Shown: positions 6,744-24,741, counted from the first letter of the stretch. The stretch is DNA of 24,741 nt from an uncultured archaeon (GCA_964426185.1 CAYRPF010000008.1:25651-50391), one strand, 5' to 3'. Notes: generated from the sequence alone by a model not told the origin. Program-made: numbers and translations.

Positions 6744-9700
6744 ATGGTGAAAGGTACTGCTAAAGTTTTGACCTGGAAAAATATCATCAAATTAATTATA
6801 CTAACTTCTTTGGTTGTGGGCGTTTACATGTTTAACACGACCCTTATTGCGTTACTCACAGATCCAACTGCTGGAGAACTAGAACGCTCTCAAAATGAGA
6901 ATGAGATCCAACCTTGGGATGATGTTACTAAAGTAGAGTTAACATTTGATCCAAGTGCCTATATTGAGGCTCTTTTAAATTCGGATCTATTAAATAATAT
7001 GTCTCTTGAAGAACAGCTAGAATTGATGGAAAATATGTTCGGTGATGGCATTGAAGATTATCTTGCTCAATCTGAATTGACTCCGAATGAGTTCTTTGAC
7101 ACATATGATGATGAATTAGCAACTTTGCTTGATAGCTTAGCTGGGGATAGTTTTTCTGGAGATTTACTCGATCAATTTAATGATCCTGCTTTAGTTGCAG
7201 TCCTTATCGCCAAACCTATGTTCTTTGCTGCAGGAAATAATCCAGCAAATCCTTGGAATGATCAGCAAGATACTCTCTTTAAAGCAAAGGCGTTTGATCA
7301 ATACGATTTGGTGAACTTTGATTGGACAGAAGGAAGTATTGGTGGTTCAGGGACCTTAATTCCAGATCCAGATAGTTCAGATCAGAAATTTCATCTCAAA
7401 GTCCCAGTTGTTATTACTGATCAAACAGTAACTACTCTATTTACCAATTCTCCCCATCCTCGTATACTTCAAGACTCTTTACAAGTATCTCCTATTTCTC
7501 CAACTTCTGATCCCAGTTTGAAGAGTCAATCCTATTTAGGAGGTGCTTGGGCAGAATCTTCTTTTTCTTTGCAAGATATGACTCAAATGACCAACTTTTC
7601 TTATGATTTACTCTACAATGATAATGATTATCCATCAGCTAGCTATTACAACGGGTTAAATTTAGAAATGACGGATTATACCGCATTAGATACTGAGGTA
7701 GAGGGTTGTTTAACCGGACCATTTGACGGGACAAATACTATCACTTGGACTCAATACCGGGCAACTCATCCCAATTTTGCCTCCGTTGCATCACAGTTAG
7801 AATCATATATAGGATTTACTTCAGCCACAACAACTTACCAAAAAATGCAAGCCATTACCGATTTTGTAGGGGCTAATTTTGTATACAATCCTCTGGGAGA
7901 TGCCCGGCCACCTGAAGGAGAAGATCCGTTAGAATGGTTCTGTCAAAGCGGTGAATCTCAATATCCCTTTGAATTCAGTTCGTTAACAGTTGCGCTTGCT
8001 CGCTTAAAGGGTATCAGTGCTAGATATGTAACTGGCTATAAATATAATGATCTATTATCCGAAAGTTTAGGAATTAGTTCGTTTTATGATTCCACCGATG
8101 GAATGACGTATTATCCCTATTTGGTTGGTAATATATATACTTGGGTTGAAGCTTTTATTCCCACTTCAGATACGACTGGTGATTGGGTTCCATTTGATAA
8201 TCATTTCACCGCCACTCCTCAAATTCCCCAGAGTCCTGATGATGTTCAGTTTATTTTAACATATAATGATGGTGGTTTTTACCCAGACATAGCAGGTTAT
8301 GAAAGAGTAGATGATTTCGGTGCGAATCAATCTGTTGATATTACTCTTACTTATAAGTTTAATGACGATCCGATGGGTTCACAATTAATTAACCTCTATG
8401 ATGTTACCTACGATCAGCCCTTAGATTTCGGTTACACCGATGCAAATGGCCAGATTACCTTCAGTTTGGATTTAAATCAATTAACTGTAGGACCGCACAC
8501 GTTAAATATTACTACGGAATACTACGGCGTGCCGATATTTAATATAACTGTAGTTAATGTCTTAGGAGAAGTAGAGATATACAGTAATGTTTCAAATAGT
8601 ATTATAGTTTCTGGACCGAATACTCCGCAAACTCAAGGAATAAGCGGTTATGCATATGATCCAGTAACTCATAGAAATGTTGCCAACGCTGAACTTAATT
8701 TCACTGGGGTTAAATTAGCTACCATTAATGAACCTATACCACAAAGCTTTGATGTTTCACCAAATAGTGTGGTAACTGGAAGTTCAGGAACATTTTCTAC
8801 TTCTGTATCTATTCCTGGATTTATTTCTGCCGATTGGGGCAGTCAGTATGAGATTTTCACCAATTTTCTGGGTGTTTTTGATATATCAGCTGATATTGCC
8901 AAATTTTCTCCTGCATTTCAGACCTACTTCTCATCATTTCCAACACGACTTCCTGCTCACCTTGCTGCGGGTTATACTGATTCTAAAAATGAAACTTTCT
9001 TAATGTATAACGATAATTACTATGAATATCATTTCTACTTAAATACTACGCGATATTCTCATAATTCTTCAACACCGACATATCAAGACTCATTAATTTA
9101 TGGTAGCCGTTCTAATTTAGTATTGAACTTCTCAGCGTCATTGTGGCAAGGCTATAATTATTCTTCGGGAGCTACAATTCAAATTTTCGATGAATCTGAA
9201 GGAAATCGGCTTGTCACTTCATTTACAACAAATTCTTTTGGATATGGATCCATACTTCATGATATTAGTTCAGATGCTGCAACAGATTGGACTGCTGGAC
9301 CACATCTATTGCGGATGGAATGGTTAGGTGCACCAAATACTGCCGAAACATATTTCTATATTTTTATTGAAGAACCGGTAGTAGTGGATCAACTTTCTGA
9401 AGTATTTAATGGGGGAACAGGAGGGTTGCCTTCAAAAACTAACGTTTATTTCTTAAATAATGAATTAGGGGATCCTTATGATAACTTCACGGTTTATGGG
9501 TGCATTTATGATGCAATAACAGGCGAAAACTTATCGAATTATGTGATTCATTATCGATTATTTGATCGATTAGGGCTGCCCCACAATGTTAGCTTTTTAC
9601 AGCAAGGTGTTTTCTCCGAAGAAGTAACCAATCCCGCATTAGGCTTCAGTGAGAAATTTAATTTCTTCAATTTTAGCGCCCCTTCATATGATCCGTTCCG

Positions 9701-12700
9701 AACCGATGTATATTTTAACGGCTTTTTCAATCTATCAGGCCACGGATGGAATAATTCATGGAATGGACTTTGGATGCCCTATTTTCAAGCCCTTCCAACT
9801 TCTAATGATTCCAGTGATGGTACTTTGGAAGTTATCAATCCTTCCACCTATACATTTGATACTTATCTGAACAATCAATTAATTTCAACATGGAACGCCA
9901 CAACTACTGTTTCAGAGCGCCAATTTGGTATTTTGGATTCACTTAATTTTACCGCTTATTTCAAGGATCAAGGAACTCCCCTTTCGGGTGCAAATGTAAC
10001 TCTTATAGATATAAATTCTTCTGCCGTTTGGATGGGTCAAACCGATGCTCAAGGCAAAATCGAATTTGTATTCAATTTCGGTCCAGGAAATATCACAGGT
10101 GTAAATAGCTTCCTCTTCAATGTTTCTTATGATGATGGGCTAATTGTAAATATCAACAGCACTCATTTCTATGTGTTTTTTAATGAAACCAAATCATATA
10201 ATTTTGATTCTCAATTAAATTTCACATCTTTTGATAGTTTGGCGCCATACTTAACTCGACAATTAGGTGTGAGTGATTTCTTCCAGCTTTCAGGGGTATT
10301 TGAATATGTTAATGGAACTAAAATTATGGGCGCACCTATAAATATAACAGATGAAAGTGATCCAACCGTTACGCGCCAAATTTTGACGGATGCAAGTGGA
10401 TATTATAATTGGACGCTTGGTTTTGGTTTTGCCAATAAAACTGGTCTTCATCGATACAATCTTTCTGTTAACTTATCCCAAGGTTCATATAGCGTTTATA
10501 TAAGCCATATCATTGAAGTTTATTTCAATGAAACTCTTAATTTTGCGTTTACTGGTTATATGAATTCCACGGATTTTAACACTTTAGGAATAATTCAAGC
10601 AGATTCTGGTAATACACTCCTAATTGATGGAGAATTTCTGTTGAAAGGTTCTGGATTCCAATCTGCTACTGTTACTTTGACTGATGGATTAAACGGAACC
10701 AGTTGGTTATTATCAACTGATGTTAGTGGTTATGTTAATTTTACCGTGTTCTTTGGTTCAAATATTCAAACTGGGTTGCGTGTATATAATCTTTCTGTAA
10801 AATATGTAGGTTCGGCTTTTACCATTCAAATGCAACGCGATTTATCCGTTAATTTTGATCCTGCCAATTTCTTTAGTTTGACGCCTTGGGATAATGTCAC
10901 AGGGGAAACTGTCGATTCTGGAGATCAGATGCATGTTACGTTGAAAGTTCTTCGTGGTGCAAGTGATTTCGATTCAGGTATTGCAACTTTAACTGACACG
11001 CTAAACGGTAGTTCATCTTGGCTTGATAATACAATTATTAACGGAAATTTTTCTTTCTTAGTGACTTTTGGATCGGGTTTACGGGTAGGAACTCACTCAT
11101 ATCTTTTGAATTATACATATACCGACCCATACGGTTATTATTACGAATATACTTATACAATTTCTAATGTAAACTTCGATCCATCGGCTTTTTACGTATT
11201 TAATCAATTTAACAATAATACTCCAATAGTATCTGGCGGGCAAACCGTTCATTTCGATACAGTATTTCAACACAATGGAATGGCACCAGAAAATCCTGCA
11301 GTAGTTAAATTAATTGACTTTGCCAATCGCTCAATGGATCAAAATCAAGGAGTAGATGGGAGTGGAAATTCTCAATTTGATTTATATTTTGGTAAAGGCA
11401 TCGTTACTGGCGACCATAGCATTACTTTGTTAGTAAATTATACAGATCAATATGGTTACGAGATATATTTTGAATACACAAATATCATTATCCATTTTCA
11501 ACCAACAGAAGGTTATCGTTTCCGACCATGGATGAATATCACCGATAATTCTTGGGTAGGTTTGGATGAACCGTTCCATATTTCAGGAATTTTTGATTAT
11601 AACGGCACAGGTTCTTTCGTTCCTGTTTCTGGCGCAAATATTACCTTAACAGATTTAACTGAAGGATCTACTTTAAATTCAATTATTACCACCGGAACTG
11701 GACAAGGGAATTTCACAGTGGAGTTTGCTGCATCAGGATATATTTTGGGTTGGCATGATTTCAAAATTAATGTATCATATACCGATGGAGCGGGATACCT
11801 GGTTTACTTTACCCATACTTATCATATTTACTTTAGCCCGAAAGGGTATACATTCGATCCATGGGATTCAACAGGTGGTGCTACCGTTGGAACAGATGAT
11901 ATAATAGATATTTCCGCAACCTTTGCCCATTACGGAAGTCCGATTAGCGGTGAAACCGTTCGACTTATTGATCAGACTGATCCCAGCATTGATGTCACAG
12001 ATATCACTGATGGAAGTGGTTATGCTAATTTTACAATCGGGTTTGCACCTGGAAATATCACAGGCTGGCATAATTTCTCCCTCTCTATTACATACGTAGA
12101 CGCTTACGGCTATACCATCGTAAATCAAACAAATGTATTGATTTTCTTCGATTATAACAAGAATTATCAATTACTCTATACCGATAATATTGTAGGTTCA
12201 GTGGGATCTGATGATACAGTAGATATTAATGTTCGATTTCTATCTAAAACTAACCCGGTTGCTGGAGTGGTTATTATCTTGAAAGATCCTGGTTCTGCTA
12301 CATTAGCAACTGGAATTACAGATGGAAGTGGATGGGCGAACTTCACATTAAGTTTTGGCCCCAGTAATTATACAGGTTTGCAAACGTATACAATCAATGC
12401 TTCCTATGATGGAATCACTTTTGTTGTGAACAAACAAGACACGTTTGATGTTAACTTTGATTACACTCAGAATTATCACCTGGATATTACAGATGATGAT
12501 ACTGGCCTGCAATATGGTGCGGGAGATTCTTTGCAGCTTAATTCCCAATTTCTCTCGCTGACAAATCCCGTTTCGGGTGCTTCTATTACCATTACAGACT
12601 CCGTTGAAGGGTTATTACATTCAGGAACGACTGATGGAAATGGATGGGTTAATTACACTGTAAACTTCGGTCCAGGATGGAATCCGGGCGCTCATGTAAT

Positions 12701-13829
12701 TACAGTGGCGGTTTCATTTGACGGTATTACTTATACTTATTCTGATTCATTCAATTACAATATCGATTTTAATGAAACTAAAAATTATATTTATTCCCCT
12801 TATGATACCATCGGTGGAATGACTCAAACCTTCGGAGATTCCGTGGAAATTTCTTGTGCATTTACCCTAAAAGGTGCAGGAATTGGCGGTGCTGCCGTAA
12901 CTTTGACCGATTTATCTAACGGAACCACTTGGAGTAGTTCCACGAATGGAAACGGTTATGCTAACTTTACTATTTCATTTAACGCAAATGTTTACCCAGG
13001 TGGTCATCATTATCAATTAGCTTTAACGTATGATGGAACAAGCTATATTATCACGAAACAATCCGATCATTGGATTTTCTACAAAAACCCGCTCAATATT
13101 TCTGCTGCGATCAGTGATTACTCATCTAACATGACTCTTGATCAAGTAGTTCCGTTCACATTCCATGTTACTGGAAATTTAGTGGACAGTAGCAATATCG
13201 CCCACGGACATTTAGATGCGCTTTTGTCAGTATATATTTATGAGGGAATTACCGATGTGAGTGATCTTTTCACATATTCTATGGTGATCAATTACTACCA
13301 TGATAATTCTGATGGAGCGTATGATATTTCTCTCAGTATAACCAACGCTCCTTACAGGGGGCAATTTACTGTTATCGTTGGATTTAATGGGAGTCTTGAT
13401 GTAGATTTGGGCAGTGTAGGTTATACTCCAGATGCTTTGCCTGTCAATTCGACGAGTGATAATGTGTATGCGTATTTCTGGGTCTATCAAAATACAACAA
13501 TTGAATGGGATTATACAATTGATAACAGTGAACTTCCATATCCATTAAATCAACAGTCTGGATTAATAATTGACGGTAGTGATGTTACCATTTTCGGAAA
13601 TCTCAGCGATTCTGATGGTATTAGGCTTGCAAATCAAAACCTTACAATAATATTATATGATAAATCTGGGAATGAATTGGATCAGTTCAATGTAACTACT
13701 GATGCTCAAGGACACTTTGAATTGTTAATAGAAGATTGTCCTTATGATCTGGATGAAATTCTTATTATATTTGATGGAAATACGGTGTTATTTTTAAATG
13801 ATATATCTGAAGGAGGTTCGATTTCGTGA
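6744..13829 (+). CDS. Giant (2361 aa) exported/surface protein: N-terminal TM or signal, degenerate transglutaminase-like domain, many Ig-like beta-sandwich domains
   Basis: Hydrophobic IIKLIILTSLVVGVYMF; TGase signatures ARLKGISARYVTGY, WVEAF, WVPFD; repeated TDxxGxxxF..G.H motif; abundant N-x-S/T sequons; Lys/Arg-poor composition. Confidence 0.88.
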   Translation: MVKGTAKVLTWKNIIKLIILTSLVVGVYMFNTTLIALLTDPTAGELERSQNENEIQPWDDVTKVELTFDPSAYIEALLNSDLLNNMSLEEQLELMENMFGDGIEDYLAQSELTPNEFFDTYDDELATLLDSLAGDSFSGDLLDQFNDPALVAVLIAKPMFFAAGNNPANPWNDQQDTLFKAKAFDQYDLVNFDWTEGSIGGSGTLIPDPDSSDQKFHLKVPVVITDQTVTTLFTNSPHPRILQDSLQVSPISPTSDPSLKSQSYLGGAWAESSFSLQDMTQMTNFSYDLLYNDNDYPSASYYNGLNLEMTDYTALDTEVEGCLTGPFDGTNTITWTQYRATHPNFASVASQLESYIGFTSATTTYQKMQAITDFVGANFVYNPLGDARPPEGEDPLEWFCQSGESQYPFEFSSLTVALARLKGISARYVTGYKYNDLLSESLGISSFYDSTDGMTYYPYLVGNIYTWVEAFIPTSDTTGDWVPFDNHFTATPQIPQSPDDVQFILTYNDGGFYPDIAGYERVDDFGANQSVDITLTYKFNDDPMGSQLINLYDVTYDQPLDFGYTDANGQITFSLDLNQLTVGPHTLNITTEYYGVPIFNITVVNVLGEVEIYSNVSNSIIVSGPNTPQTQGISGYAYDPVTHRNVANAELNFTGVKLATINEPIPQSFDVSPNSVVTGSSGTFSTSVSIPGFISADWGSQYEIFTNFLGVFDISADIAKFSPAFQTYFSSFPTRLPAHLAAGYTDSKNETFLMYNDNYYEYHFYLNTTRYSHNSSTPTYQDSLIYGSRSNLVLNFSASLWQGYNYSSGATIQIFDESEGNRLVTSFTTNSFGYGSILHDISSDAATDWTAGPHLLRMEWLGAPNTAETYFYIFIEEPVVVDQLSEVFNGGTGGLPSKTNVYFLNNELGDPYDNFTVYGCIYDAITGENLSNYVIHYRLFDRLGLPHNVSFLQQGVFSEEVTNPALGFSEKFNFFNFSAPSYDPFRTDVYFNGFFNLSGHGWNNSWNGLWMPYFQALPTSNDSSDGTLEVINPSTYTFDTYLNNQLISTWNATTTVSERQFGILDSLNFTAYFKDQGTPLSGANVTLIDINSSAVWMGQTDAQGKIEFVFNFGPGNITGVNSFLFNVSYDDGLIVNINSTHFYVFFNETKSYNFDSQLNFTSFDSLAPYLTRQLGVSDFFQLSGVFEYVNGTKIMGAPINITDESDPTVTRQILTDASGYYNWTLGFGFANKTGLHRYNLSVNLSQGSYSVYISHIIEVYFNETLNFAFTGYMNSTDFNTLGIIQADSGNTLLIDGEFLLKGSGFQSATVTLTDGLNGTSWLLSTDVSGYVNFTVFFGSNIQTGLRVYNLSVKYVGSAFTIQMQRDLSVNFDPANFFSLTPWDNVTGETVDSGDQMHVTLKVLRGASDFDSGIATLTDTLNGSSSWLDNTIINGNFSFLVTFGSGLRVGTHSYLLNYTYTDPYGYYYEYTYTISNVNFDPSAFYVFNQFNNNTPIVSGGQTVHFDTVFQHNGMAPENPAVVKLIDFANRSMDQNQGVDGSGNSQFDLYFGKGIVTGDHSITLLVNYTDQYGYEIYFEYTNIIIHFQPTEGYRFRPWMNITDNSWVGLDEPFHISGIFDYNGTGSFVPVSGANITLTDLTEGSTLNSIITTGTGQGNFTVEFAASGYILGWHDFKINVSYTDGAGYLVYFTHTYHIYFSPKGYTFDPWDSTGGATVGTDDIIDISATFAHYGSPISGETVRLIDQTDPSIDVTDITDGSGYANFTIGFAPGNITGWHNFSLSITYVDAYGYTIVNQTNVLIFFDYNKNYQLLYTDNIVGSVGSDDTVDINVRFLSKTNPVAGVVIILKDPGSATLATGITDGSGWANFTLSFGPSNYTGLQTYTINASYDGITFVVNKQDTFDVNFDYTQNYHLDITDDDTGLQYGAGDSLQLNSQFLSLTNPVSGASITITDSVEGLLHSGTTDGNGWVNYTVNFGPGWNPGAHVITVAVSFDGITYTYSDSFNYNIDFNETKNYIYSPYDTIGGMTQTFGDSVEISCAFTLKGAGIGGAAVTLTDLSNGTTWSSSTNGNGYANFTISFNANVYPGGHHYQLALTYDGTSYIITKQSDHWIFYKNPLNISAAISDYSSNMTLDQVVPFTFHVTGNLVDSSNIAHGHLDALLSVYIYEGITDVSDLFTYSMVINYYHDNSDGAYDISLSITNAPYRGQFTVIVGFNGSLDVDLGSVGYTPDALPVNSTSDNVYAYFWVYQNTTIEWDYTIDNSELPYPLNQQSGLIIDGSDVTIFGNLSDSDGIRLANQNLTIILYDKSGNELDQFNVTTDAQGHFELLIEDCPYDLDEILIIFDGNTVLFLNDISEGGSIS
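9844..13090 (+). repeat. Ten tandem ~103-115-aa Ig-like (Big-like) protein repeats
   Basis: Consensus G-x-P-x-SGAxxTLxD...TDGxGxxNFTxxFGxxxxxGxHxxxxxxxY; boundaries VFFNE, VYFNE, VNFDP, VNFDP, IHFQP, IYFSP, IFFDY, VNFDY, IDFNE, IFYKN spaced ~310-345 bp. Limits are approximate. Confidence 0.85.
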
Positions 13830-13866
13830 TATTTGTAAAAAAATATCACAAAACGAGGTGCATACC

Positions 13867-15648: not shown

Positions 15649-15702
15649 GAAGTTAAAACATTTAAGGGGAAAAGTTTAATACAATACTAATAGGTGTTTG
15701 TC

Positions 15703-16062
15703 ATGGCTAGAAAAAAGAAAAGCGGTTCAATGGATTTGGGTTCTCGTTTGAAGAATATCCAATTGTTAGTAGGAACAAAACGAATACGTGAAGCAATCGC
15801 GTATCAATATATGATTTTCGTTATTATTTGCACAGCGAAATATCGAGTCCAAAAGCATCCTTCCCAGAGTATTCGGGATTATGCTATGATCATAGTAAAA
15901 GAACACGGTTTAGATCCAGGTGTTGTTTATCCTTTCGTCCAAGAAGTTGAAAGTGTGATCTATGGAAATAAACCAATTACAGAAGAAATCTATAAACGTT
16001 CTTTGACTCAATTTGGAAAGGTCTTTGAAGAATTGGTGGGTAAACCTTTACCTCCTCTTTAA
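15703..16062 (+). CDS. Stand-alone soluble DUF4129-like protein
   Basis: AGGTG SD just upstream of ATG 15703 (MARKKK); colinear with the C-terminal domain of the previous ORF (REAIAYxY, SQSIRDYA, GLDP, VESVIYG). Confidence 0.82.
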   Translation: MARKKKSGSMDLGSRLKNIQLLVGTKRIREAIAYQYMIFVIICTAKYRVQKHPSQSIRDYAMIIVKEHGLDPGVVYPFVQEVESVIYGNKPITEEIYKRSLTQFGKVFEELVGKPLPPL

Positions 16063-16080
16063 ACAATATATTATAAATTA

Positions 16081-16140
16081 TCTGGATGAAATATTAAAGG
16101 ATTTTCAACCAGAAAAAAGTCAAAATTGTGTTTTTTTTTT
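16081..16140 (+). terminator. Imperfect hairpin followed by T10 tract
   Basis: TCTGGATGAAA (16081-16091) pairs with TTTCAACCAGA (16103-16113) at 10/11 positions; T10 at 16131-16140. Confidence 0.45.
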
Positions 16141-16206
16141 GAAATGGATACTAAAAGCATAATTAAAGGATACAATTCAAATTTCGATAGAAGGTATTGA
16201 TAAACT

Positions 16207-18705
16207 ATGAATTATGGTATAATACTATTTCCTTTGGGCTTATTGATGACAGCTGCTGGAATTGGAGTTGGTGCAGCAGGAGCACCTCCAGAGTTCTTTG
16301 TCCCAATTTTAATACTCGGTATTCTCATCTTCTTTATTGGATTTGCACGCCTAGTTCAAGGCAAAGAACGAAAAATCCTTGGGAAAATTATCCGACCAAA
16401 AGCTGCTGCGAGAAGCTCGATTGTGTGGGCTCTATTATTTTTCAATATTACTCCGTTTATTTTACTTAAAACTGAGGGGATTAAATATATCTTTAATAAC
16501 CTTCCCTTTCCAATCACTATCTTAATGTCGGAGAAAAATGTTGTTCAACAGTATTATTCCTGGGTACCGGCAGTTTTTGTAGCATTTCATGTAATTTGGC
16601 TGGTTTCTTTCTTCTTATCAGGAAAAATTCCAAAAATCATTAATATTTTTATGAATTTCATCATTACTCTCAGTTTTTCATTTTGGATGTCATTTGGAGG
16701 GCAATTTTTGCTATGGACCTTTGCTGCAGATAAAACTGATCTTCCTTTTATGGATCCTTGGCAATCAGCAACAACTATAGGAGAATTGGTTACACCTCTA
16801 ATTATCGGCGGAGTAATTATCATTCTTTCTTTGGTACTGCTATTGCGGATGATTAGAAATTTGCAAATCTCTTTTTCGAATTTAAACACCAAAGGAAAAG
16901 GAGGAAAAATGATTCTATCATATATTTTCCTTATTCTTTTTTATATCATTGCGATTTTTCCATTAGTCTTAGGGATTTACAATGCCATTCAATCGATCAG
17001 TCTAATTGTCCAATATACAAATTACATAAGCATCGTATTTTTAGCAATTGGAATTTTCAGCGTAATAACCAATTTAATCAATACTTCTAAAGACATGGGT
17101 AAAAAGATAGCTACCACTGGAACTGAAGGGACTGGTAGTAAAGTTTCCTTCGGAATTATGACCGCAGTTTATATTCTTGTTTTCATATTGACATGGGCTC
17201 CCATATTCATGCCTATTGTTGACAGTGGTCAAAATAGTAAAAGTAATTCAATTTACAATCCAGATTGGAATGGATGGTCTACTTTTAGGACAGGACTAGA
17301 AAACTTAGGCTATGAAGTACACCCGATTCAATCTTCTATCAGTACTGTTTCTCAATTAGATCCTACAAAACAAGTGATTTTAGTTGTGGGCGGGCCGAAT
17401 GTCTTTTATAATCCCGCTTCAGAAATACCTTTCCTATTGACTGCATTCCAAACGAATTTTTCCATTATGATATGCGATGATCACGGAACCGCTGAAACAT
17501 TACTTACAGAAGCATTTATAGCTTCAATGGCAGCCACTAAAGATCCCTCTAAAGCAACTCCTCTCACTTTCTTCCCAAAGGGTGTTTTATTAGATAACGA
17601 TTCTTTTTGGACTAATCCAGAATTTCCTGTTATCCAAGATTTTGCACCTCATGATATTACCAGCGGAATAAGTAAGGTAGTTTTAGATCACGCAACTGGA
17701 TTTTTAGGTGGAGAATTTCTTTCTGGATTTGGATGGAATTTCTTAGGCCAGACATCTGGACATTATTCTTTCATAGATATTAACGGCGATAATAAATACG
17801 ATCAAGATCAAGATTTCTATCCTTTTCCAGCAGCTATTGCGAATCTTCTAGCGGGACAGTCTGGAACGTTAGGGCTAATGGGTACATTTTTACAACAAGG
17901 AATTCCATTAGGTGGTTATGCTCAAGCAGTCTTTAGCTCAAAAGAAATTGCTTATCATGCAAGAACAGCTAATGGAAACGGGACATTTTCTAGCCGAATA
18001 TTTGTAGCAACTGATGCTTCTTGGTTAGACAACCAAATGGTAAGTTTACCTGGATTCGATAATCTGAAAATGGGTTTACAAGCAATAGATTGGTTGGCAT
18101 GTGACCGTTCACCATCAGAAACGATAGTGGTATTTGACGAAGCACATATTGCTCCAGATAGTCCTAAATGGAACGTAGGTAGAACTCAAATTTCATCTGC
18201 GGCCTCCTTTGGAGCGGTCCAATCTTATTTAAACTGGATGTCAACTAACCCCATATTAGCATTAGTTTATCCCATTTTTGCACTTCAAACTTTTCGAAAA
18301 TGGATTCCTAAAGAAGGAAGTAAAAAGAAGCTGCAACTCCAAGACTTAGAAGCATATGAAAGGGATCGAATGCGGTTAAAATTCAGAACTTCCAGTTTCT
18401 TTGCAAAGAAAATTAATTGGTATCGCCAGAAACGGCGATATCGTAAAGCTATATTAGAACTTTTCAGAAGGGTAGAACGAAAAGTTAATCGTCTTCTTGG
18501 AGAATCAGGAGACCGCTCTTTAAGTGCATTAATGCGCGCTTTGAGACAAGAACATGGCCAATATTATTCAGAAGATGTTTACAAACGCATCGAAAAGTTT
18601 TTCGAAAAAATGTTTAAAATCAAAATTGGGAAAGAACGAGTTCGTGATGAACACGAATTTGAACTTCTTTTCATGGAAATGTCTTGGGTTGCCAATAAGA
18701 TCTAA
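16207..18705 (+). CDS. Polytopic membrane protein with DUF4350 / GldG-like domain and basic helical C-tail
   Basis: About 8-9 hydrophobic segments in aa 1-335; SIYNPDWNGWSTF..L..LG, HDITSGI, RIFVATDASWLDN..DN...IDWL, VVFDEAH. Confidence 0.8.
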   Translation: MNYGIILFPLGLLMTAAGIGVGAAGAPPEFFVPILILGILIFFIGFARLVQGKERKILGKIIRPKAAARSSIVWALLFFNITPFILLKTEGIKYIFNNLPFPITILMSEKNVVQQYYSWVPAVFVAFHVIWLVSFFLSGKIPKIINIFMNFIITLSFSFWMSFGGQFLLWTFAADKTDLPFMDPWQSATTIGELVTPLIIGGVIIILSLVLLLRMIRNLQISFSNLNTKGKGGKMILSYIFLILFYIIAIFPLVLGIYNAIQSISLIVQYTNYISIVFLAIGIFSVITNLINTSKDMGKKIATTGTEGTGSKVSFGIMTAVYILVFILTWAPIFMPIVDSGQNSKSNSIYNPDWNGWSTFRTGLENLGYEVHPIQSSISTVSQLDPTKQVILVVGGPNVFYNPASEIPFLLTAFQTNFSIMICDDHGTAETLLTEAFIASMAATKDPSKATPLTFFPKGVLLDNDSFWTNPEFPVIQDFAPHDITSGISKVVLDHATGFLGGEFLSGFGWNFLGQTSGHYSFIDINGDNKYDQDQDFYPFPAAIANLLAGQSGTLGLMGTFLQQGIPLGGYAQAVFSSKEIAYHARTANGNGTFSSRIFVATDASWLDNQMVSLPGFDNLKMGLQAIDWLACDRSPSETIVVFDEAHIAPDSPKWNVGRTQISSAASFGAVQSYLNWMSTNPILALVYPIFALQTFRKWIPKEGSKKKLQLQDLEAYERDRMRLKFRTSSFFAKKINWYRQKRRYRKAILELFRRVERKVNRLLGESGDRSLSALMRALRQEHGQYYSEDVYKRIEKFFEKMFKIKIGKERVRDEHEFELLFMEMSWVANKI

Positions 18706-18808
18706 AAAAACAACCCGGCTACCATTTTTTTTAACTAAACAAATAATAAACACTGTAAAAAATCTATAAAAAATATAAACCAACTCAATGAAAAAGGAAG
18801 TAAAGAAA

Positions 18809-19768
18809 ATGACTGAAGTATTTGAAGAAGCTGATGTGGGCATTGTTCGAGAAATTGCCCAAGAAGTAATGAGCGAAGTTGCTCGTGTGATTGTTGGAAT
18901 GGGAGACGTCCTTCAAATGTTATTAATCGGACTCCTAACTAACGGGCATGTATTGCTTGAAGGTGTGCCCGGTCTGGCAAAAACAGTTACTGCAAAAACC
19001 TTTGCGGAAGCCCTAGGTATTTCGTTTAATCGAATTCAATTCACCCCAGACTTACTCCCCAGCGATTGCACCGGAAGCATGGTTTTCGATCAATCTAAGG
19101 GTGATTTCGTGATCCGAAAAGGACCACTATTTGGAAATATTATTCTGGCAGATGAAATCAACCGAACCGCTCCTAAGACTCAAGCTGCGTTATTAGAAGC
19201 TATGGGCGAAAGACAAGTAACCATTGAAGGGAAAACATATGATCTAGACAAACCGTTTATGGTGGTAGCTACACAGAACCCCATTGAGCAAGAGGGGACC
19301 TATCCTTTGCCAGAGGCGCAGTTGGATCGATTTTTATTTAAGTTATGGCTGGATTATCCACCTGAAGAGGATGAAGTGGAGATTATGGCCAGGCAGTTAT
19401 CCGGAAATAAGATTCAAATCGATCCCATCACCAGCGCCGAGGAATTAATCGAATTGCAGCGTTTGGTGGATACCGTATTTGTAAACAACACTATTTTGGA
19501 ATATATCCGGGATATCGTGTTTAAAACCCGCAACGATCCACAGATTGAGGTGGGATGCGGGCCACGGGCCAGTTTGGCGCTGATGAAGGCGGCCAAAGCT
19601 CGAGCAGCCGTACTAGGACGTGATTATGTGACTCCTGATGATGTGAAGGCGCTGTGCGTTCCGGTGCTGAATCATCGTATTGGATTAAAAGCGGAGGCAG
19701 AATTGGAAGGTTTGAGTACGACGGCGGTAATTAATCGTATTTTGAGCGAAGTAATCGTGCCAATGTAA
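18809..19768 (+). CDS. moxR: MoxR-family AAA+ ATPase (MoxR-proper type)
   Basis: GVPGLAKT Walker A, RIQFTPDLLPSD, LADEINR Walker B, ATQNPIEQEGTYPLPEAQLDRF. Start could alternatively be 18788. Confidence 0.96.
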   Translation: MTEVFEEADVGIVREIAQEVMSEVARVIVGMGDVLQMLLIGLLTNGHVLLEGVPGLAKTVTAKTFAEALGISFNRIQFTPDLLPSDCTGSMVFDQSKGDFVIRKGPLFGNIILADEINRTAPKTQAALLEAMGERQVTIEGKTYDLDKPFMVVATQNPIEQEGTYPLPEAQLDRFLFKLWLDYPPEEDEVEIMARQLSGNKIQIDPITSAEELIELQRLVDTVFVNNTILEYIRDIVFKTRNDPQIEVGCGPRASLALMKAAKARAAVLGRDYVTPDDVKALCVPVLNHRIGLKAEAELEGLSTTAVINRILSEVIVPM

Positions 19769-19898
19769 ATTAAAAAATTTTCCTTTTCATTGAGTTTTTT
19801 TTCCTTTCTGATTCGGAATTTTTCAATTTACTCTCTTATTATTATTCAGATTGCAAAATAGTTGAATTAGCAACGCACAAGAAAGAATAATAAAAAAA
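19769..19898. terminator. Bidirectional oligo-T terminator zone between convergent genes
   Basis: T-runs on the plus strand (~19795-19802) and an A-run (minus-strand T-run) at ~19892-19898. Confidence 0.45.
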
Positions 19899-21272
19899 TT
19901 AATAGAGAAAATTACGGCGATGATTTTTTTCCGATTCACGTTGTGGCCGTTTCTCTCTTTTGGAATTCGTTTGTTTTTGATAAGTTCGACGAGAGCCTTG
20001 TTTCAAAGATGTACTGAATCTTGATTTTGAGAATGTTTTTGCTCTCGATCTTTTGAAATTAGAATTTCGTGAAAATTGTCGCTTACTATTTCGCGGGGGT
20101 AATTTTCGCTGTTTTAAGTCACGTTCCATAAATCCTTCAATTCTGGAGAGAAGAGCCAATTCATCTTGTATAACTAGTGAGATGGCCGTCCCTTGGGCAA
20201 CTTCTCCTTCAACACCTATTATTCTTGCCGTTCTACCAATACGGTGCACGTAATTTTCTTCAAAAGCGGGAATATCATAATTGAATACGTGCGAAATACC
20301 TTTAATATCCAAACCACGGGCAGCGACATCGGTAGCAATTAAATGTTGGATTTTACTAGATCGAAATCGAGATAAAACCTTTTCCCGCTTAAACTGCGTT
20401 AAATTTCCACTGATCAACTCAAATTGACTTGAAATTTTAGTTTCTTGTTGAAGTCGATTGTAGAGCCATTCTCCAGTCTTTTTTGTATTTACGAAAATGA
20501 TAGAGTGCTTTGGTTTTTCTTTTTGAAAGATTCGCACAAAATGGGAATATTTATCTCGAAATTCTGGGATTAAATAGTAGAATTGTTCGCATTGTTCTAC
20601 AGTGAGGGAATCTTCCGATACATTGATCTTAGTAATAGGATCTTGTTTTGTAAATTTGGATACCAGTTGGTTAATTGCGTGGAAAAGTGTTGCAGAAAAG
20701 AGTAATAGCCGTGGATGGACTCCATGCATAGCTTGCAACAATAAATATTCAATATCAGGCATAAATCCCATGTCTAAACATCGGTCGGCCTCATCCAACA
20801 CTACGAATTTTACCTTTTTAAAGGAAACTCTGTTTCGATTGTAAATATCAATTAAACGACCAGGTGTGGCAACTATAACTTGCGCTCCTTCTTCGATTTG
20901 AGATATTTGACGGTTAATGGAAACACCACCGTAAACTTCGACAGTTTTTATTTCAGCATATTCACTTAAATTCGAAAATACTGTATGGACTTGCACACAT
21001 AATTCACGAGTGGGTACAATTACTATTGCCTGCACTTGAGGAGTTGATCGTTCAATCATTTGCACGATTGGGATAGCAAATGCTAATGTTTTTCCTGAAC
21101 CAGTTTTTGCCTGGGCGATCAAATGTGCATCAGGATTAGACAAGATGGCCGGGATGGCTTGTGCTTGAATATCGGTGGGTGTTTCGATGTTCATTTTGGT
21201 TAACCCTTTTATTATAGGGTCAATCAAGTTCATTTCTTTAAAATTGTTAATACTTTGATTTTTCATAATCAT
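19899..21272 (-). CDS. DEAD-box ATP-dependent RNA helicase (CshA/DeaD-like) with basic C-terminal tail
   Basis: Q motif TPTDIQ, AKTGSGKT, PTREL, TPGR, DEAD, SAT, ARGLD, HRIGRTAR; R/K/S-rich tail. Start may be 21266. Confidence 0.96.
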   Translation of the reverse strand: MIMKNQSINNFKEMNLIDPIIKGLTKMNIETPTDIQAQAIPAILSNPDAHLIAQAKTGSGKTLAFAIPIVQMIERSTPQVQAIVIVPTRELCVQVHTVFSNLSEYAEIKTVEVYGGVSINRQISQIEEGAQVIVATPGRLIDIYNRNRVSFKKVKFVVLDEADRCLDMGFMPDIEYLLLQAMHGVHPRLLLFSATLFHAINQLVSKFTKQDPITKINVSEDSLTVEQCEQFYYLIPEFRDKYSHFVRIFQKEKPKHSIIFVNTKKTGEWLYNRLQQETKISSQFELISGNLTQFKREKVLSRFRSSKIQHLIATDVAARGLDIKGISHVFNYDIPAFEENYVHRIGRTARIIGVEGEVAQGTAISLVIQDELALLSRIEGFMERDLKQRKLPPRNSKRQFSRNSNFKRSRAKTFSKSRFSTSLKQGSRRTYQKQTNSKREKRPQRESEKNHRRNFLY

Positions 21273-21816
21273 AACCTAAAATTCAGTAAAATTTTATCTC
21301 AGTTATCTCCATAATTCTTTGTAAAATTTGAGTGAATTTCTTTCTCCAATTGTGTTGTTGAATTAGTGTTAGATTTAATTCTTGAGATAAGAATATACTA
21401 TACTGAGAAATTTTTGATAATTTTTTGTAATGTTTCTACTTCTTATGTATGAAAATAAATCTTCGGTAAAGAATGTAACTCCTTTATTTTTTATTTTTTT
21501 TTCCAAATTCTATGTTTCAACCCTTTGGTGCTAAAAAGTTCGAAAATCATACAGTACTATCTGAAAATGAAGGAATTAGAATTTTGGGTACATTTTTGGG
21601 CCAAATAACCAAAATAAAATTATTTTTTCGGTAAGTGGCTTTCGCACCAAATTTGTTCATATTTCGAGAAGATCACTTATTTAAGTTACATTCACCTATG
21701 TTTTGGTATACGTATATGATCAAGGATGCTATGTTCCAAGTTAATATTTTTAAAAGTAATTAACAGCATTTTGATTCATAACATTGCTATTTGCTTAATT
21801 TGAGGTAGATTTAACC
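21273..21816. promoter_or_regulatory. 544-bp AT-rich divergent intergenic region with TTTGG-based palindromic sites
   Basis: TTTGGGCCAAA 21595-21605; inverted pair TTTGGTGCTAAA 21524-21535 / TTTCGCACCAAA 21640-21651; GAGGT SD before GTG 21817. Confidence 0.5.
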
Positions 21817-23145
21817 GTGCTCGGTGGAAAAGGACGATCCTTAATAATAATGGCCGCATTTTTGATTTCAGCGGGTTTAAGTTTTCATAACCACTTTTTA
21901 ATTTTGTGTGGCTCATTTTTCTTATTCGCAACTATGATTTCGATGCCTGCATTTGAGTCTTCCACAAATGTCGAAGAATTAACCGTAACCCGAGAAATCG
22001 ATAATAAACGAATTTTTCGTGACGATTTCATGCATGTGAAAGTTAGGATAAAAAATACTGGTGGCACACGCTTTGATTTTTTGGATATTTTTGATAATTT
22101 TCCAGTAGAAGTCTTTCGTTTGGTGGCTGGAGAAAATTACATTAGCACCAGAATCGATCCAAAAAGTGAAGTCGTTTTTTCCTACATCCTAGCTCCACGA
22201 GTGCGAGGAGAATTTGAACTTGGGCCTTTAGAAATTACAGTGCGGGATCGATTAGGTTTCAGTGCCGTTGAAAAGACGGTGCCAAATTCTATGACTGATA
22301 TTGTAATTTATCCCCCATACGAAGAAATTCGGGCCTTAGAATTGCTTGGAGCTAAGCGAGCGATGGCCATGTCATTCGGTGTTCATCAAGTTAAGCAAAA
22401 GGGAACTGGAACAGACTTGAGAAATTTACGACAATATGTTCCTGGTGATCAATATCGATTAATTGATTGGAAAGCGAGTATGCGGTTGCAAAAGTTGATT
22501 GTTCGAGAGTTTGAAAGTGAAAGAAACGTTTCTACTGTAATTCTTATTGATTCAAGCGAATCTATGGCTGGTGGTGCTGTGGATACGACAAAATTTGAAC
22601 TGGCAATTAAATCAGGTATGCTTCTAGCAAAATTGGCTATGGAACAAAAGGACCAAGTGGGTGTGTGCACCTTTTCAGATCGAAATCATTTTAGATGGTT
22701 GGCTCCTTCAACCCGTCGAAGTCACTATTATGATATCATTACATTTTTGGGAGAGATTACTCCAAAGGGTAATAAAGAAATCTTTTGGTCTATTGAGGAA
22801 TTCAGTCGAAATTGGGATAAGCGTTCATTGGTGTTTTTAATCACTGATTTAGAAGTAGCTGGTGTCGATATCGTTGCAGCGGTAAAAAAATTGAAATCTT
22901 ATGGGCATGCAGTGGTGATTGTTGCACCATTCAGTCCTTGGTTTGAAATCCATGAATTGGAATTATCTCCTATCGATAAAGCACTAGCAGAAGCAATTTC
23001 AGAAGAAATGATGCTTCATGTATTGCAAATACGGAAAGATTGTCAAAAATTATTGGTTCCTGTGATTTCAGTGGCACCAGACGATATGTTTGAAGTAATT
23101 GTAAATCAATATCAAGAAGCAAAACAAAAAGGGAAGGCGGATTAA
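21817..23145 (+). CDS. DUF58-family protein (N-terminal TM hairpin, Ig-like domain, vWA-like domain)
   Basis: LRQYVPGD..RLIDWKAS.R...VREFE.E signature; MIDAS-like LIDSSES and LITD; GTG start with SD. Confidence 0.92.
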   Translation: MLGGKGRSLIIMAAFLISAGLSFHNHFLILCGSFFLFATMISMPAFESSTNVEELTVTREIDNKRIFRDDFMHVKVRIKNTGGTRFDFLDIFDNFPVEVFRLVAGENYISTRIDPKSEVVFSYILAPRVRGEFELGPLEITVRDRLGFSAVEKTVPNSMTDIVIYPPYEEIRALELLGAKRAMAMSFGVHQVKQKGTGTDLRNLRQYVPGDQYRLIDWKASMRLQKLIVREFESERNVSTVILIDSSESMAGGAVDTTKFELAIKSGMLLAKLAMEQKDQVGVCTFSDRNHFRWLAPSTRRSHYYDIITFLGEITPKGNKEIFWSIEEFSRNWDKRSLVFLITDLEVAGVDIVAAVKKLKSYGHAVVIVAPFSPWFEIHELELSPIDKALAEAISEEMMLHVLQIRKDCQKLLVPVISVAPDDMFEVIVNQYQEAKQKGKAD

Positions 23146-23176
23146 TCAATCAACAAGGAAAACAGGTGGAAAACAC

Positions 23177-24739
23177 ATGGTGGAACGCAATTATCTTTTA
23201 ATAACTCTCAGAGTATGCAGTGTAGCTTTATTAGCATTACTATTAACTGAATTAAGTAAGATTTACAATCCCGAGATCTATAATGTATGGAATGTTCTGA
23301 GTATAATCGGAATGCTTAGAGATATTTTTGCATTTATATTATATATTATACTCTTTTATTTGATTAATGGCTTGGTTTTTATTGCCGTCGGAATAGCAAC
23401 GTTGTTTGGAATTAGTGCTAATTTCATACTAAATTTTGGTTATAACATTACTCAAAATTTGATCGGACGTTGGTTTAAATTTACATTTATCGATTCAACC
23501 ATTGAAACCACTTCACCAACGGTAGATCAAGCTATTCAAGGTTTAAAAGATTTATTTGAAGCGATTTCAAGCGATTTATATATGATAGGTTTGCAAATAT
23601 TGGTTATTGCCATGTTCTTTTATGCTTTACGTGGTGCTTTGACCAGTAATCCTGGAGATAGCGTTAGGGTTATTATGTATTTGAATGCCATTATTGCAAT
23701 TCCACTATTCTTTTTACAAATCGTTGAATTGTTATCCTTTTTTGGAATTCCTATCGCTACACTCCCCGAATGGTTTCAGAATATAGTTTATCATGACCTC
23801 CTTTATTCAGGTATTTTTGAAGATATTTCCCAAATGTCTTTATGGGAATTTCTCCAAACCGATATTTTTTTGGTTGCGGTTCTGGAATTTGTTTACCTTG
23901 AATTTGTGTTTCAATTATCATATGTGGATCAAGTTACCCGACCTTCTATTGAACGTGAAGAACGCCTCTCCCATCAAATTGAAGTAATGCATGAAGAAGC
24001 TCAGAAAGCGATTGCACGAATCAAAGCAATTGAAGAGCGGAAACGAGAATTAAAAATGGAAGAACGTGCTAACCTCACTCAAGAGGAACGTGAACGACGC
24101 AAACAAGAACAAGAACGTTTGTCTTTACGTTCATTGATGTCAGAATCTGGTGAACAAGTAGGTTTTTCTTATGTAGCCGAATTAATCAAAAAGAAAAAAG
24201 CAGAGCGCATGGAAGCTAAAGTTATGGGTGCTATGCGGGATACCCGAAAAATTGCCAACTATCTGGATAAATTATTCAAACAAGATCCTGAAGCACGTTC
24301 TGCCTTAACTGCCTCTTCATCGGCACCAAAATCATCACGTTTGGTATCATCTACTCTGATTAATATGTTCGTTCGAATTTTAATGATTAGTGCTATGTCT
24401 TGGGCAGCTGTGCATCCTTATCAGTTCTTTGCATTAATTGGAGCGCCTGATTCAATACTAAAAAGTGTGGAGCTTCAAATCTACGAAGGATCTTGGAGTA
24501 TTATTCTTCCTTTAGTATTAATAATTCCTCTGATTTCTTATATCATCAGAATAACCAAAAATGCCAAATTGCAAGAAATGCTTAGGTTAGAAGCCATCCG
24601 TAGGGCAGGTTTAACTGAAGAGGAATATGAAGCACTTCAAGCCCAACGAGAAGGAGAGCTTACCGAAGAAGAAGTGCAAATGGCTCGGGATAAGGATGTC
24701 CTCGCCGATGAAGCGAAAAAAGCGGCACAGTTTAAATAA
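23177..24739 (+). CDS. Uncharacterised polytopic membrane protein with long E/R/K-rich coiled-coil loop and tail
   Basis: AGGTGG SD; ~5-6 N-terminal and 2 C-terminal hydrophobic segments; EERKRELKMEER...EERERRKQEQER; TAA at 24737-24739. Confidence 0.8.
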   Translation: MVERNYLLITLRVCSVALLALLLTELSKIYNPEIYNVWNVLSIIGMLRDIFAFILYIILFYLINGLVFIAVGIATLFGISANFILNFGYNITQNLIGRWFKFTFIDSTIETTSPTVDQAIQGLKDLFEAISSDLYMIGLQILVIAMFFYALRGALTSNPGDSVRVIMYLNAIIAIPLFFLQIVELLSFFGIPIATLPEWFQNIVYHDLLYSGIFEDISQMSLWEFLQTDIFLVAVLEFVYLEFVFQLSYVDQVTRPSIEREERLSHQIEVMHEEAQKAIARIKAIEERKRELKMEERANLTQEERERRKQEQERLSLRSLMSESGEQVGFSYVAELIKKKKAERMEAKVMGAMRDTRKIANYLDKLFKQDPEARSALTASSSAPKSSRLVSSTLINMFVRILMISAMSWAAVHPYQFFALIGAPDSILKSVELQIYEGSWSIILPLVLIIPLISYIIRITKNAKLQEMLRLEAIRRAGLTEEEYEALQAQREGELTEEEVQMARDKDVLADEAKKAAQFK

Positions 24740-24741
24740 TG

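Follow-up and report, generated by a model that had tools for sequence, protein, structure and literature searches.

A candidate surface-structure operon of Asgard archaea encoding a giant TgpA-like protein together with a MoxR/DUF58 module

The window, a stretch of DNA of 24,741 nucleotides, came from an Asgard archaeon in the genus of Ca. Harpocratesius (Ca. Harpocratesius repetitus, genome G001, is a congener), in agreement with the Asgard-like host suggested in the original prediction. All seven plus-strand genes of that prediction were found at the coordinates it had given (Table 1). They had been described as a co-oriented set, and their existence, strand and, largely, their domain content were confirmed; contiguity was not, as the block is interrupted between moxR (g5) and the DUF58 gene (g7) by a minus-strand DEAD-box helicase gene and a 545-bp spacer, neither of which had been mentioned. 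In the window's genus, the inserted helicase gene cuts the operon into two transcription units.

Table 1. Features of the locus, with positions counted from the first nucleotide of the window
Feature	Coordinates	Strand	Basis
g1, giant surface protein, 2361 aa	6744..13829	+	Pfam, hydropathy, AF2 model
Pseudo-transglutaminase core, g1 aa 360-485	7821..8198	+	Alignments of 12 and 19 orthologues
Ten tandem ~105-aa Ig-like units, g1 aa 1063-2123	9930..13112	+	jackhmmer self-search; bMG3, Big_1, MG2
g2, TM + Ig-like ectodomain + TM + DUF4129-like tail	13798..15648	+	Hydropathy; Big_1
g3, small soluble DUF4129 paralogue without TM	15694..16062	+	DUF4129 19.3 bits; family matches
g4, ~8 TM + DUF4350/GldG-like (GIFT) ectodomain (aa ~345-725) + TM + basic helical tail	16207..18705	+	Hydropathy; family matches
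g5, MoxR AAA+ ATPase	18788..19768	+	AAA_3 216 bits, AAA_lid_2 90 bits
DEAD-box helicase	19899..21272	-	DEAD 161 bits
g7, DUF58 adaptor	21817..23145	+	DUF58 103.6 bits, VWA_2, TRAP_beta, BatD
g8, 520-aa polytopic membrane protein with long coiled coil	23177..24739	+	AF2; synteny; predicted complex

The largest protein, g1, is a TgpA homologue: the periplasmic domain of TgpA (6g49) was its best structural match (Foldseek E 4.7e-10, target TM-score 0.58-0.62; pLDDT of the AF2 model 74) and its best match by sequence as well (hmmsearch E 1.3e-14). A single hydrophobic segment (N-terminal TM, aa 12-38, from hydropathy) precedes a TgpA-like ectodomain with a transglutaminase core at aa ~335-485 (Pfam Transglut_core, 48.9 bits against a cut-off of 23), which is followed by Ig-like beta-sandwich repeats that match bMG3, CarboxypepD_reg, Big_1 and MG2 in Pfam and reach a C-terminus without an anchor. 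By hydropathy, no polytopic N-terminal membrane region of the TgpA type was present in g1, and g1 relatives matched TgpA_N in its distal soluble part alone, with scores below the cut-off. The C-terminal TM and DUF4129 of the TgpA architecture are likewise not in g1 and are supplied by g2; in several other Asgard lineages, fused orthologues from other families carry them in cis (TGL-Ig-TM-DUF4129; DUF4129 at 37-49 bits), while in the Lokiarchaeal order the giant protein is divided among three genes.

At the triad positions of the g1 core, Cys is replaced by Pro (QYPFEFSS) and His by Tyr (YTWVE), and Asp is retained (WVPFD). The nucleophile Cys was found in 0 of 19 aligned Asgard orthologues and His was missing in most, so that the pseudo-transglutaminase proposed originally was upheld; judged from these alignments, the domain is a catalytically dead pseudo-enzyme. 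The ten tandem Ig-like units (domain E 1e-29 to 1e-44 in the self-search) carry dense N-glycosylation sequons, and across aa 501-2361 a total of 68 N-x-S/T sequons were observed, compared with ~29 expected. Sequons were not enriched on the transglutaminase-like (TGL) head of g1 or on the DUF4350 domain of g4, and glycosylation therefore does not confirm the membrane side of these two domains.

In g2, two TM segments (aa 34-59 and 449-473) flank the Ig-like ectodomain, and the DUF4129 tail (aa ~487-593) is predicted from the sequence to be cytoplasmic. The two DUF4129 copies originally proposed, in the g2 tail and in g3, were both supported: the g2 tail aligned with the g3 family at an hhalign probability of 99.5% (E 2.7e-23), and g3, itself below the PF13559 cut-off of 24.8 bits, belongs to a family in which 7 of 19 members match DUF4129 (best E 1.2e-12). 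A third copy, considered for the tail of g4, was unsupported (hhalign probability 0.5%). The true starts of g2 and g3 are likely ATG 13867 and ATG 15703, respectively, since orthologues begin there. The DUF4350 score of g4 itself (22.7 bits) was below the cut-off of 30.4; of the 22 members of its family, 21 match DUF4350, 11 ABC_transp_aux and 2 IFT52_GIFT. The gene was found in all 41 genomes of the window's taxonomic order (41/41), and outside family f1 its product has few TM segments. The basic helical tail of g4 is probably cytoplasmic. PF07760, the family of Ig-like proteins with 2-4 TM segments (COG4743), had no match in the window genes at E up to 0.01.

The MoxR protein carries the Walker A motif GVPGLAKT and the Walker B motif ILADE, and its gene lies directly upstream of DUF58 in most of 80 DUF58-centred loci. 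For this family, MoxR/vWA pairs are established as adaptor-guided remodellers (PMC3495828). The DUF58 protein consists of an N-terminal TM hairpin (aa ~8-47), an Ig-like domain and a vWA domain in which the start of the MIDAS motif is intact (D245-x-S247-x-S249; D245 is invariant and S247 nearly so among the conserved columns, and S249 was read from the window sequence alone). Hydropathy and the predicted complex described below point to a topology of a membrane hairpin with a cytoplasmic vWA domain.

The last gene, g8, directly follows DUF58 in 80 of 80 DUF58-centred loci, at a median distance of 4 nt. Its product had no Pfam or NCBIfam match, no SpoIIM or RDD domain was matched in it or in the other window genes, and a fold search with the all-helical AF2 model (pLDDT 78) returned no match. 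The family is small (137 clusters among 1.84 billion proteins), and every named member is from an Asgard archaeon. The long coiled coil is predicted to be cytoplasmic, and a conserved juxtamembrane motif is present at aa ~335-384. A complex of DUF58 and g8 was predicted with an ipSAE of 0.63, a confidence value assigned by the model itself from purpose-made alignments, compared with 0.00 for the best of three controls. Of 80 solved complexes, 58 attain this ipSAE mark, as do 2 of 110 mismatched pairs; because of the purpose-made alignments, these counts apply only roughly to DUF58-g8. The runs shared at least 79% of contacts with a partner pLDDT of at least 68, and the predicted interface, formed by 89 of the 520 g8 residues, holds 19 of the 28 g8 residues that are invariant or nearly so. 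No solved complex in the PDB resembled it, the PDB relatives of DUF58 being isolated vWA domains. The model suggests that g8 is the membrane partner of DUF58, which it would clamp; of the interfaces anticipated within the original machine, this one is predicted.

Of 11 Asgard family-level groups sampled, 10 had the gene set in an unchanged order, those of Lokiarchaeum ossiferum and MK-D1 included. Within the window's taxonomic order, g1-g2-g3-g4-moxR-DUF58-g8 was retained in the three families sampled at locus level (four were searched), uninterrupted in L. ossiferum, and beyond it the same module and gene order recurred in seven of eight further families; the exception had DUF58-moxR-g8, with no g4 or g1 match nearby. 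All seven genes were in order in at least 47 of the 80 DUF58-centred loci, in which intergenic gaps amount to a few nucleotides, and almost all genomes of the phylum have the system, usually as a single copy. Linkage in relatives, which the original prediction had proposed to check, extends in order and strand across the Asgard phylum, and such a grouping greatly exceeds what chance would produce. Besides the window's genus, the operon is split in MK-D1 and in genomes G004 and G005, and this tolerance of splitting indicates that strict co-transcription is not required. Identity between the window and L. ossiferum decreased from MoxR (85%) and DUF58 (78%) through g3 (64%), g8 (54%) and g4 (53%) to g2 (35%) and g1 (32%), a gradient that fits a conserved cytoplasmic engine with a fast-evolving exposed part.

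Our leading interpretation, held tentatively and at slightly less than an even chance, is that the operon represents, in its Lokiarchaeal form, an envelope operon on the TgpA/arCOG01314 theme found throughout the Asgard archaea, in which MoxR, DUF58 and g8 form a membrane-anchored engine whose action on DUF4129 tails assembles or remodels a glycosylated stalk at the surface. Outside the cell would lie N-glycosylated g1 (the dead TgpA-type head and the Ig chain), the Ig protein g2 and the GldG/GIFT-type ectodomain of g4; the predicted inner components are the g2 DUF4129 tail, the free DUF4129 paralogue g3, MoxR, and DUF58 (Ig and vWA with MIDAS), the last tethered to the membrane through its TM hairpin. 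DUF58 docked on g8 would place the MoxR hexamer at the DUF4129 tails inside the cell, and ATP-driven pulling or remodelling could be transmitted via the TM segments, so that the stalk outside the cell would be assembled, held or switched to another state (inside-out control). The dead g1 head may then serve for binding and not as an enzyme. In the original prediction the stalk was a possible substitute for a classical S-layer or a means of cell-cell contact, both roles being conjectural.

L. ossiferum is without an ordered S-layer and has unidentified surface densities; among the 'complex surface proteins' seen by cryo-ET, some bridge protrusions and some are located at high membrane curvature (PMC9834061). 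That the operon encodes these proteins, with an Asgard-specific engine of MoxR, DUF58 and g8 governing their assembly or conformation from inside the cell, is unlikely; if true, it would amount to an ATP-controlled contact apparatus in the lineage closest to eukaryotes. As a separate and more remote extension, MoxR, an inactive transglutaminase-like domain and a GIFT domain lie in one operon here, and these three families have relatives in dynein/midasin, ciliary TGL proteins and IFT52.

Signalling could also run in the opposite direction, with the Ig stalk and a binding head detecting surface contact or threat and the TM-DUF4129 tails relaying the signal to MoxR/DUF58, on the pattern of the Esr pathway of Actinobacteria and the MoxR-vWA ternary conflict systems. 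The Esr surface filament of 14 Ig-like domains, with MoxR, vWA and transglutaminase, is reported to act as a sensor (10.64898/2026.09.08.750141), and the fast evolution of the ectodomains would suit such a role. The window MoxR also matches bpMoxR (38.5 bits), but AAA_3 (216 bits) fits g5 far better, and the window genes that were scanned yielded no domain of the beta-propeller, kinase, phosphatase, FHA or effector type. No further conserved gene was evident in related loci, where the Pfam scan took in the gene families of the cluster and a small number of inserts, and a single-copy system in nearly every Asgard genome is unlike the patchy conflict systems; we consider an outside-in sensor rather improbable. 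Somewhat more doubtful still is a dedicated secretion or translocation apparatus (Makarova et al. 2015), with g4 and g8 as the conduit and MoxR powering export or release of the giant protein. A novel secretion system has been predicted around DUF4350, MoxR, vWA and Ig-like membrane proteins (PMC5898192), g4 is related to GldG, and two polytopic proteins are in the set; however, the N-terminal hydrophobic segments of g1 and g2 would suit ordinary Sec export, the conserved g8 surface is predicted to bind DUF58 and not to form a pore, and the few TM segments of g4 outside family f1 argue against a conduit. MoxR ATPases are not known to act as translocases, which also counts against this alternative.

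For MoxR-vWA-YebA/TgpA-like operons, membrane-proximal degradation has been suggested, with a substrate recruited by vWA, unfolded by MoxR and cut by the transglutaminase-like domain (Zhang and Aravind 2012; PMC3495828), but this is highly improbable here given the loss of Cys and, mostly, of His from the Asgard orthologues. In addition, the g1 head probably lies across the membrane from MoxR, because it matches periplasmic TgpA and follows the single N-terminal TM, on the side of the glycosylated Ig repeats. That the genes form no functional unit and are neighbours by chance, or share membrane targeting only, might be suggested by the unrelated helicase gene and by the few genomes with a split block; phylum-wide order and strand, gaps of a few nucleotides and the g1-g2 fusion in other lineages speak against it, and we regard this least credible reading as refuted by synteny.

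Several known systems are close to the Asgard operon. In Pseudomonas aeruginosa, TgpA (PA2873, of the PA2875-PA2874-tgpA operon) has an intact Cys-His-Asp triad, in vitro transglutaminase activity and a polytopic N-terminus (PMC3507681). It shares with g1 an extracytoplasmic transglutaminase-fold domain after a TgpA_N-type soluble part, and with the Asgard system a C-terminal TM and DUF4129 (in cis in several Asgard lineages, in trans here) and linkage to moxR and DUF58. In contrast, g1 lacks the catalytic Cys and crosses the membrane just once at its N-terminus, the Asgard protein has an Ig-like chain (ten tandem units) inserted before the tail and is divided into two or three genes, and the Asgard operon adds DUF4350 and g8. 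Domain content and synteny agree with the original view of an expanded relative of the moxR-DUF58-tgpA and DUF4129-DUF4350-moxR-DUF58 neighbourhoods.

The archaeal neighbourhood of arCOG01314 (DUF4350) was described by Makarova, Galperin and Koonin in 2015 as a putative novel secretion or membrane remodelling system (PMC5898192). It comprises a DUF4350/GldG-like anchored protein, MoxR, an Ig and vWA protein, Ig-like proteins with 2-4 TM segments and small polytopic proteins, much as in the Asgard set, and its core recurs here as the DUF4350/GldG-like protein beside MoxR and the Ig-vWA protein (DUF58, TRAP_beta/BatD, VWA). That description has no transglutaminase-like or DUF4129 part (the word 'transglutaminase' is absent from PMC5898192), its Ig membrane proteins are COG4743/PF07760, to which g2 (Ig with two TM) is analogous only, and g8 is a separate family. 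The vWA protein was modelled as secreted (PMC5898192), whereas we place the vWA domain in the cytoplasm. The kind of system was predicted in 2015 and is less novel than originally implied.

In oral Actinobacteria, the Esr pathway combines a beta-propeller sensor head, Ser/Thr kinases, a phosphatase and FHA outputs, and its separate transglutaminase is a proposed covalent linker of filament and surface, the deletion of which leaves filament protein in the supernatant (10.64898/2026.09.08.750141). Esr and the Asgard cluster have in common a surface filament of Ig-like repeats, MoxR, vWA/DUF58 and a transglutaminase-like protein; the sensor, kinase, phosphatase and FHA parts and a separate transglutaminase were not found in the window genes, where the TGL domain is dead and lies within the filament protein. 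The PFNA operon of bifidobacteria (pkb2-fn3-aaa-duf58-tgm) reportedly groups a surface filament of FN3-like repeats with MoxR, DUF58 and a transglutaminase-like protein.

The original prediction of seven co-oriented genes held for the genes themselves, all of which were placed on the plus strand between positions 6744 and 24739 by ORF listing and Pfam searches, but it had missed a helicase gene on the minus strand, which together with a 545-bp spacer keeps moxR and the DUF58 gene apart in the window. Transcription of the seven genes is therefore divided among two or more units here, and a strand switch downstream of the window sets the end of the gene set at g8. The presumed Asgard-like host was also correct: the window lies on contig C8 of a genome of 3.26 Mb (92% complete) from the same genus as Ca. 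Harpocratesius repetitus FW102, which has a closed genome of 4,361,485 bp.

Features of the gene set and associated loci (positions are those of the window unless another locus is named; TM, transmembrane segment; TGL, transglutaminase-like)
Feature	Position	Strand	Length (aa)	Properties
g1, giant TGL/Ig protein	6744-13829	+	2361	one N-terminal hydrophobic segment (aa 12-38); Transglut_core at aa 360-485 (48.9 bits, cut-off 23)
g2, membrane Ig protein	13798-15648	+	616 (as listed)	Ig-like ectodomain between two TMs, then C-terminal tail
g3, soluble DUF4129 paralogue	15694-16062	+	122	without TM
g4, DUF4350/GldG-like protein	16207-18705	+	832	about eight N-terminal TMs, large soluble domain, one TM, basic helical tail
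g4 N-terminal extension	16207-17240	+	about 340	polytopic
g5, MoxR ATPase	18788-19768	+		AAA_3 (216 bits); Walker A GVPGLAKT, Walker B ILADE
DEAD-box helicase (moxR/DUF58 junction insert)	19899-21272	-		DEAD (161 bits), Helicase_C (100 bits)
g7, DUF58 protein	21817-23145	+		DUF58 (103.6 bits); Ig-like domain (TRAP_beta/BatD matches) and vWA domain
g8, coiled-coil membrane protein	23177-24739	+	520	polytopic, long charged helices
Junction insert, relative's locus L051	4761-9536			
Junction insert, relative's locus L053	5759-9865			
11-mer, two copies	6625-6635; 21595-21605			upstream of both cluster halves
Zinc-ribbon protein	1133-2065		310	adjoins the 419-aa protein
Zinc-ribbon protein	2201-3460	+	419	C-terminal zinc ribbon
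Second DUF4350 match, window's own genome	G000:C14:23286-23789			43.7 bits, above cut-off
DUF58-moxR-g8 locus L134	G089:C4:114500-134400			

Linkage of the genes in relatives, on which the original prediction depended, was clearly retained. All 41 genomes of the window's order carried a g4 homologue, nearly always as one copy, and in fifteen loci sampled from three families of the order (four were searched) the arrangement g1-g2-g3-g4-moxR-DUF58-g8 was kept wherever the DNA or contig extended far enough; in Ca. Lokiarchaeum ossiferum B35 all seven genes were found uninterrupted. With HMMs built from the order's orthologues, the same module was detected in seven out of eight additional groups at family level elsewhere in the phylum. 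The exception (group f18) carries DUF58-moxR-g8, neither g4 nor g1 being matched within 20 kb, and is a rearranged or reduced module. The best 80 loci from a search of public genomes with the DUF58 alignment were Asgard, save one contig labelled as a Nanopelagicaceae bacterium, which is probably mis-binned. In all 80, g8 directly followed the DUF58 gene (median gap 4 nt), and at least 47 retained the full seven-gene order, most others being cut by contig ends. Homologues of g8 were found in 265 of the 301 Asgard genomes sampled. The operon is real and deeply conserved.

Interruptions between moxR and DUF58 were confined to the window's family, the junction being tight in other lineages, and this site is an insertion hot spot in that one family. 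The helicase is shared by the window and H. repetitus, the latter having an additional 7.4-kb insert that includes a resolvase gene; Promethearchaeum syntrophicum MK-D1 has a 4.3-kb insert encoding TPR and LRR proteins, and in one relative (genome G004) moxR was not found within 9.8 kb. An 11-mer, TTTGGGCCAAA, upstream of both cluster halves was considered as a shared operator and rejected, since it occurs in 11 copies genome-wide (approximately 8 times a rough, composition-based hand estimate) and is missing from all relatives' loci examined, and so is not cluster-specific. Protein identity between the window and L. ossiferum was 85% for MoxR, 78% for DUF58, 64% for g3, 54% for g8, 53% for g4, 35% for g2 and 32% for g1, a gradient that fits a conserved inner engine with a fast-changing, exposed outer part.

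The best PDB match of an AF2 model of g1 (aa 1-560, pLDDT 74) was the periplasmic domain of Pseudomonas aeruginosa TgpA (6g49/6g4h; Foldseek E 4.7e-10, target TM-score 0.58-0.62), and the same chain was matched by sequence with a profile of 19 g1 orthologues (E 1.3e-14). In the TGL core of the window protein, Pro and Tyr stand at the Cys and His positions and Asp is retained. None of the 19 orthologues, taken from across the phylum, has Cys at the nucleophile position, and only a few keep His, so that the pseudo-enzyme state of the domain goes back to early in the history of the phylum. Pfam gave numerous Ig-like matches in g1 (bMG3, CarboxypepD_reg, Big_1, MG2), and self-search resolved tandem units of about 105 aa, ten at aa 1063-2123 and one further at aa 525-618. 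In several lineages, TGL head, Ig repeats, TM segment and C-terminal DUF4129 (up to 37 bits) are fused in a single polypeptide of 1100-1850 aa, and weak TgpA_N matches are seen in some of these; a 1171-aa relative has Ig repeats and DUF4129 (49 bits) and no TGL match. The tail is a standalone 150-aa TM-DUF4129 protein in another family, and in the window's order the parts are divided among g1, g2 (which carries a separate export segment) and the soluble g3, whose clear paralogy to the g2 tail was seen with hhalign (99.5%, E 2.7e-23). In short, g1 is a dead, stretched and split TgpA. The window proteins themselves score under the Pfam cut-offs for DUF4129 and DUF4350, assignments that are supported by matches in 7 of 19 and 21 of 22 orthologues, respectively. 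A third DUF4129 domain in the g4 tail was rejected (hhalign probability 0.5%).

N-x-S/T sequons were about twice as frequent as expected from composition in the Ig parts of g1 (68 against approximately 29 at aa 501-2361) and g2 (15 against 8.7 in the ectodomain), and equalled expectation in the cytoplasmic proteins, the TGL head and the g4 ectodomain. Elsewhere in the window, the larger of two adjoining zinc-ribbon proteins has 12 sequons against 6.3 expected. Half of the g4 family members (11 of 22) matched the GldG-type ABC_transp_aux model, and when the g4 profile was run against PDB sequences, only spurious GPCR transmembrane matches came up and IFT52 was not among them. The polytopic extension of g4 is limited to the window's family; DUF4350 proteins measure about 580 aa in a sister family and 375-595 aa, with few TM segments, outside the order. 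Another DUF4350 match, inside a 1787-aa open frame on a different contig of the same genome, may mark a second, different surface module.

For g8, Pfam yielded no match to the window protein and no model common to its 22 family members, and NCBIfam gave it no match and otherwise only generic AAA+ matches. AF2 modelled g8 as entirely helical (pLDDT 78); Foldseek against the PDB gave no meaningful match (best E 0.75), and the best VIA wide-search hits (Z 8.6) were generic helical hairpins under the noise level that the tool states for models of this helical kind. Among 1.84 billion representative proteins, only 137 clusters matched the g8 profile, the most distant named members being hypothetical proteins of Njordarchaeia and Helarchaeales and one partial fragment labelled Korarchaeota; Atlas neighbours were solely unnamed Promethearchaeota clusters. 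Because of its constant adjacency and its lack of a recognised family, g8 was chosen with DUF58 for complex prediction. The pair reached an ipSAE of 0.63 (runs 0.62-0.70) against 0.00 for the best control, a mark also attained by 58 of the 80 solved complexes and 2 of the 110 mismatched pairs used for calibration, counts that apply only roughly here since our own alignments were used. Contact agreement between runs was at least 79% and partner pLDDT at least 68. The model places the TM hairpin of DUF58 (aa ~5-53) between the TM helices of g8, and the Ig-like domain of DUF58 on the juxtamembrane helix of g8 and its conserved motif (aa 358-384). The 89-residue predicted interface holds 19 of the 28 invariant or near-invariant g8 residues (hypergeometric p ~1e-9), a conservation not fully independent of the model, which took the alignment as input. 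No similar solved complex was found in the PDB, where DUF58 relatives are isolated vWA domains. The predicted complex supports binding of DUF58 to g8. The MIDAS motif of DUF58 starts at D245-x-S247-x-S249, with D245 invariant and S247 nearly so; S249 was read from the window sequence alone.

From the parts, their linkage and probable membrane sides, the inactive TGL domain, the intact motifs of the ATPase and the MIDAS, and the DUF58-g8 contact, as seen in or predicted from the sequence, a mechanism may be drawn in which DUF58, clamped by g8, would bring MoxR to the cytoplasmic DUF4129 tails, and ATP-driven remodelling would be relayed across the membrane so that an extracellular stalk is assembled, held or switched. 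The loss of catalytic residues argues for binding, not catalysis, and the TGL head would act as a binding module. We hold this engine acting through the DUF4129 tails on a surface stalk tentatively, at slightly less than an even chance. An outside-in sensor of the Esr type is built of similar parts, but propeller, kinase, FHA and effector genes were not found in the window, and a single-copy distribution throughout the phylum differs from that of conflict systems, which makes such a sensor unlikely. A secretion conduit, as proposed in 2015, we consider distinctly unlikely. A membrane-proximal protease was rejected as very improbable, the nucleophile being lost and the topology placing the TGL domain across the membrane from MoxR, and that the genes are neighbours merely by chance is scarcely credible.

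Asgard archaea lack an ordered S-layer, and their surface structures and cell-cell contacts are central to syntrophy-based models of eukaryote origin. With its single copy in the order, its presence in 265 of 301 genomes and its occurrence in both cultured strains (L. ossiferum and MK-D1), the operon offers a concrete candidate set, namely the giant glycoprotein with its partners in the membrane plus an ATPase module in the cytoplasm, that is testable in two cultured Asgard strains. In cryo-ET, L. ossiferum shows complex, unidentified surface proteins but lacks an ordered S-layer (PMC9834061), which makes the operon attractive as a putative surface-structure system. Replacement of an S-layer by the giant protein, as the original prediction proposed, is so far unsupported. 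The widespread, unexplained MoxR/DUF58/DUF4129/DUF4350 module also gains a defined, testable architecture, with a TgpA-like protein both fused and split and a predicted membrane partner for DUF58.

MoxR-vWA-TGL operons were described by Zhang and Aravind in 2012 (PMC3495828), and a complex in archaea that combines DUF4350 and MoxR with Ig-vWA and Ig-like membrane proteins was predicted by Makarova, Galperin and Koonin in 2015 (PMC5898192), so that this kind of system is not new and holds no surprise for specialists aware of the 2015 prediction; among the literature matches listed, the sole one joining Asgard with MoxR concerned another subject. Pseudomonas TgpA has an intact triad, acts as a transglutaminase in vitro and shares a transcript with PA2875 and PA2874 (PMC3507681), whereas in the window's g1 the triad has changed (Pro for Cys, Tyr for His) and only Asp is kept. 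Specific to the present system are its conservation across the Asgard phylum, a dead TGL head joined to a long Ig chain, the series of architectures from fused to split, and the partner g8, with named relatives that are all Asgard and a predicted contact with DUF58.
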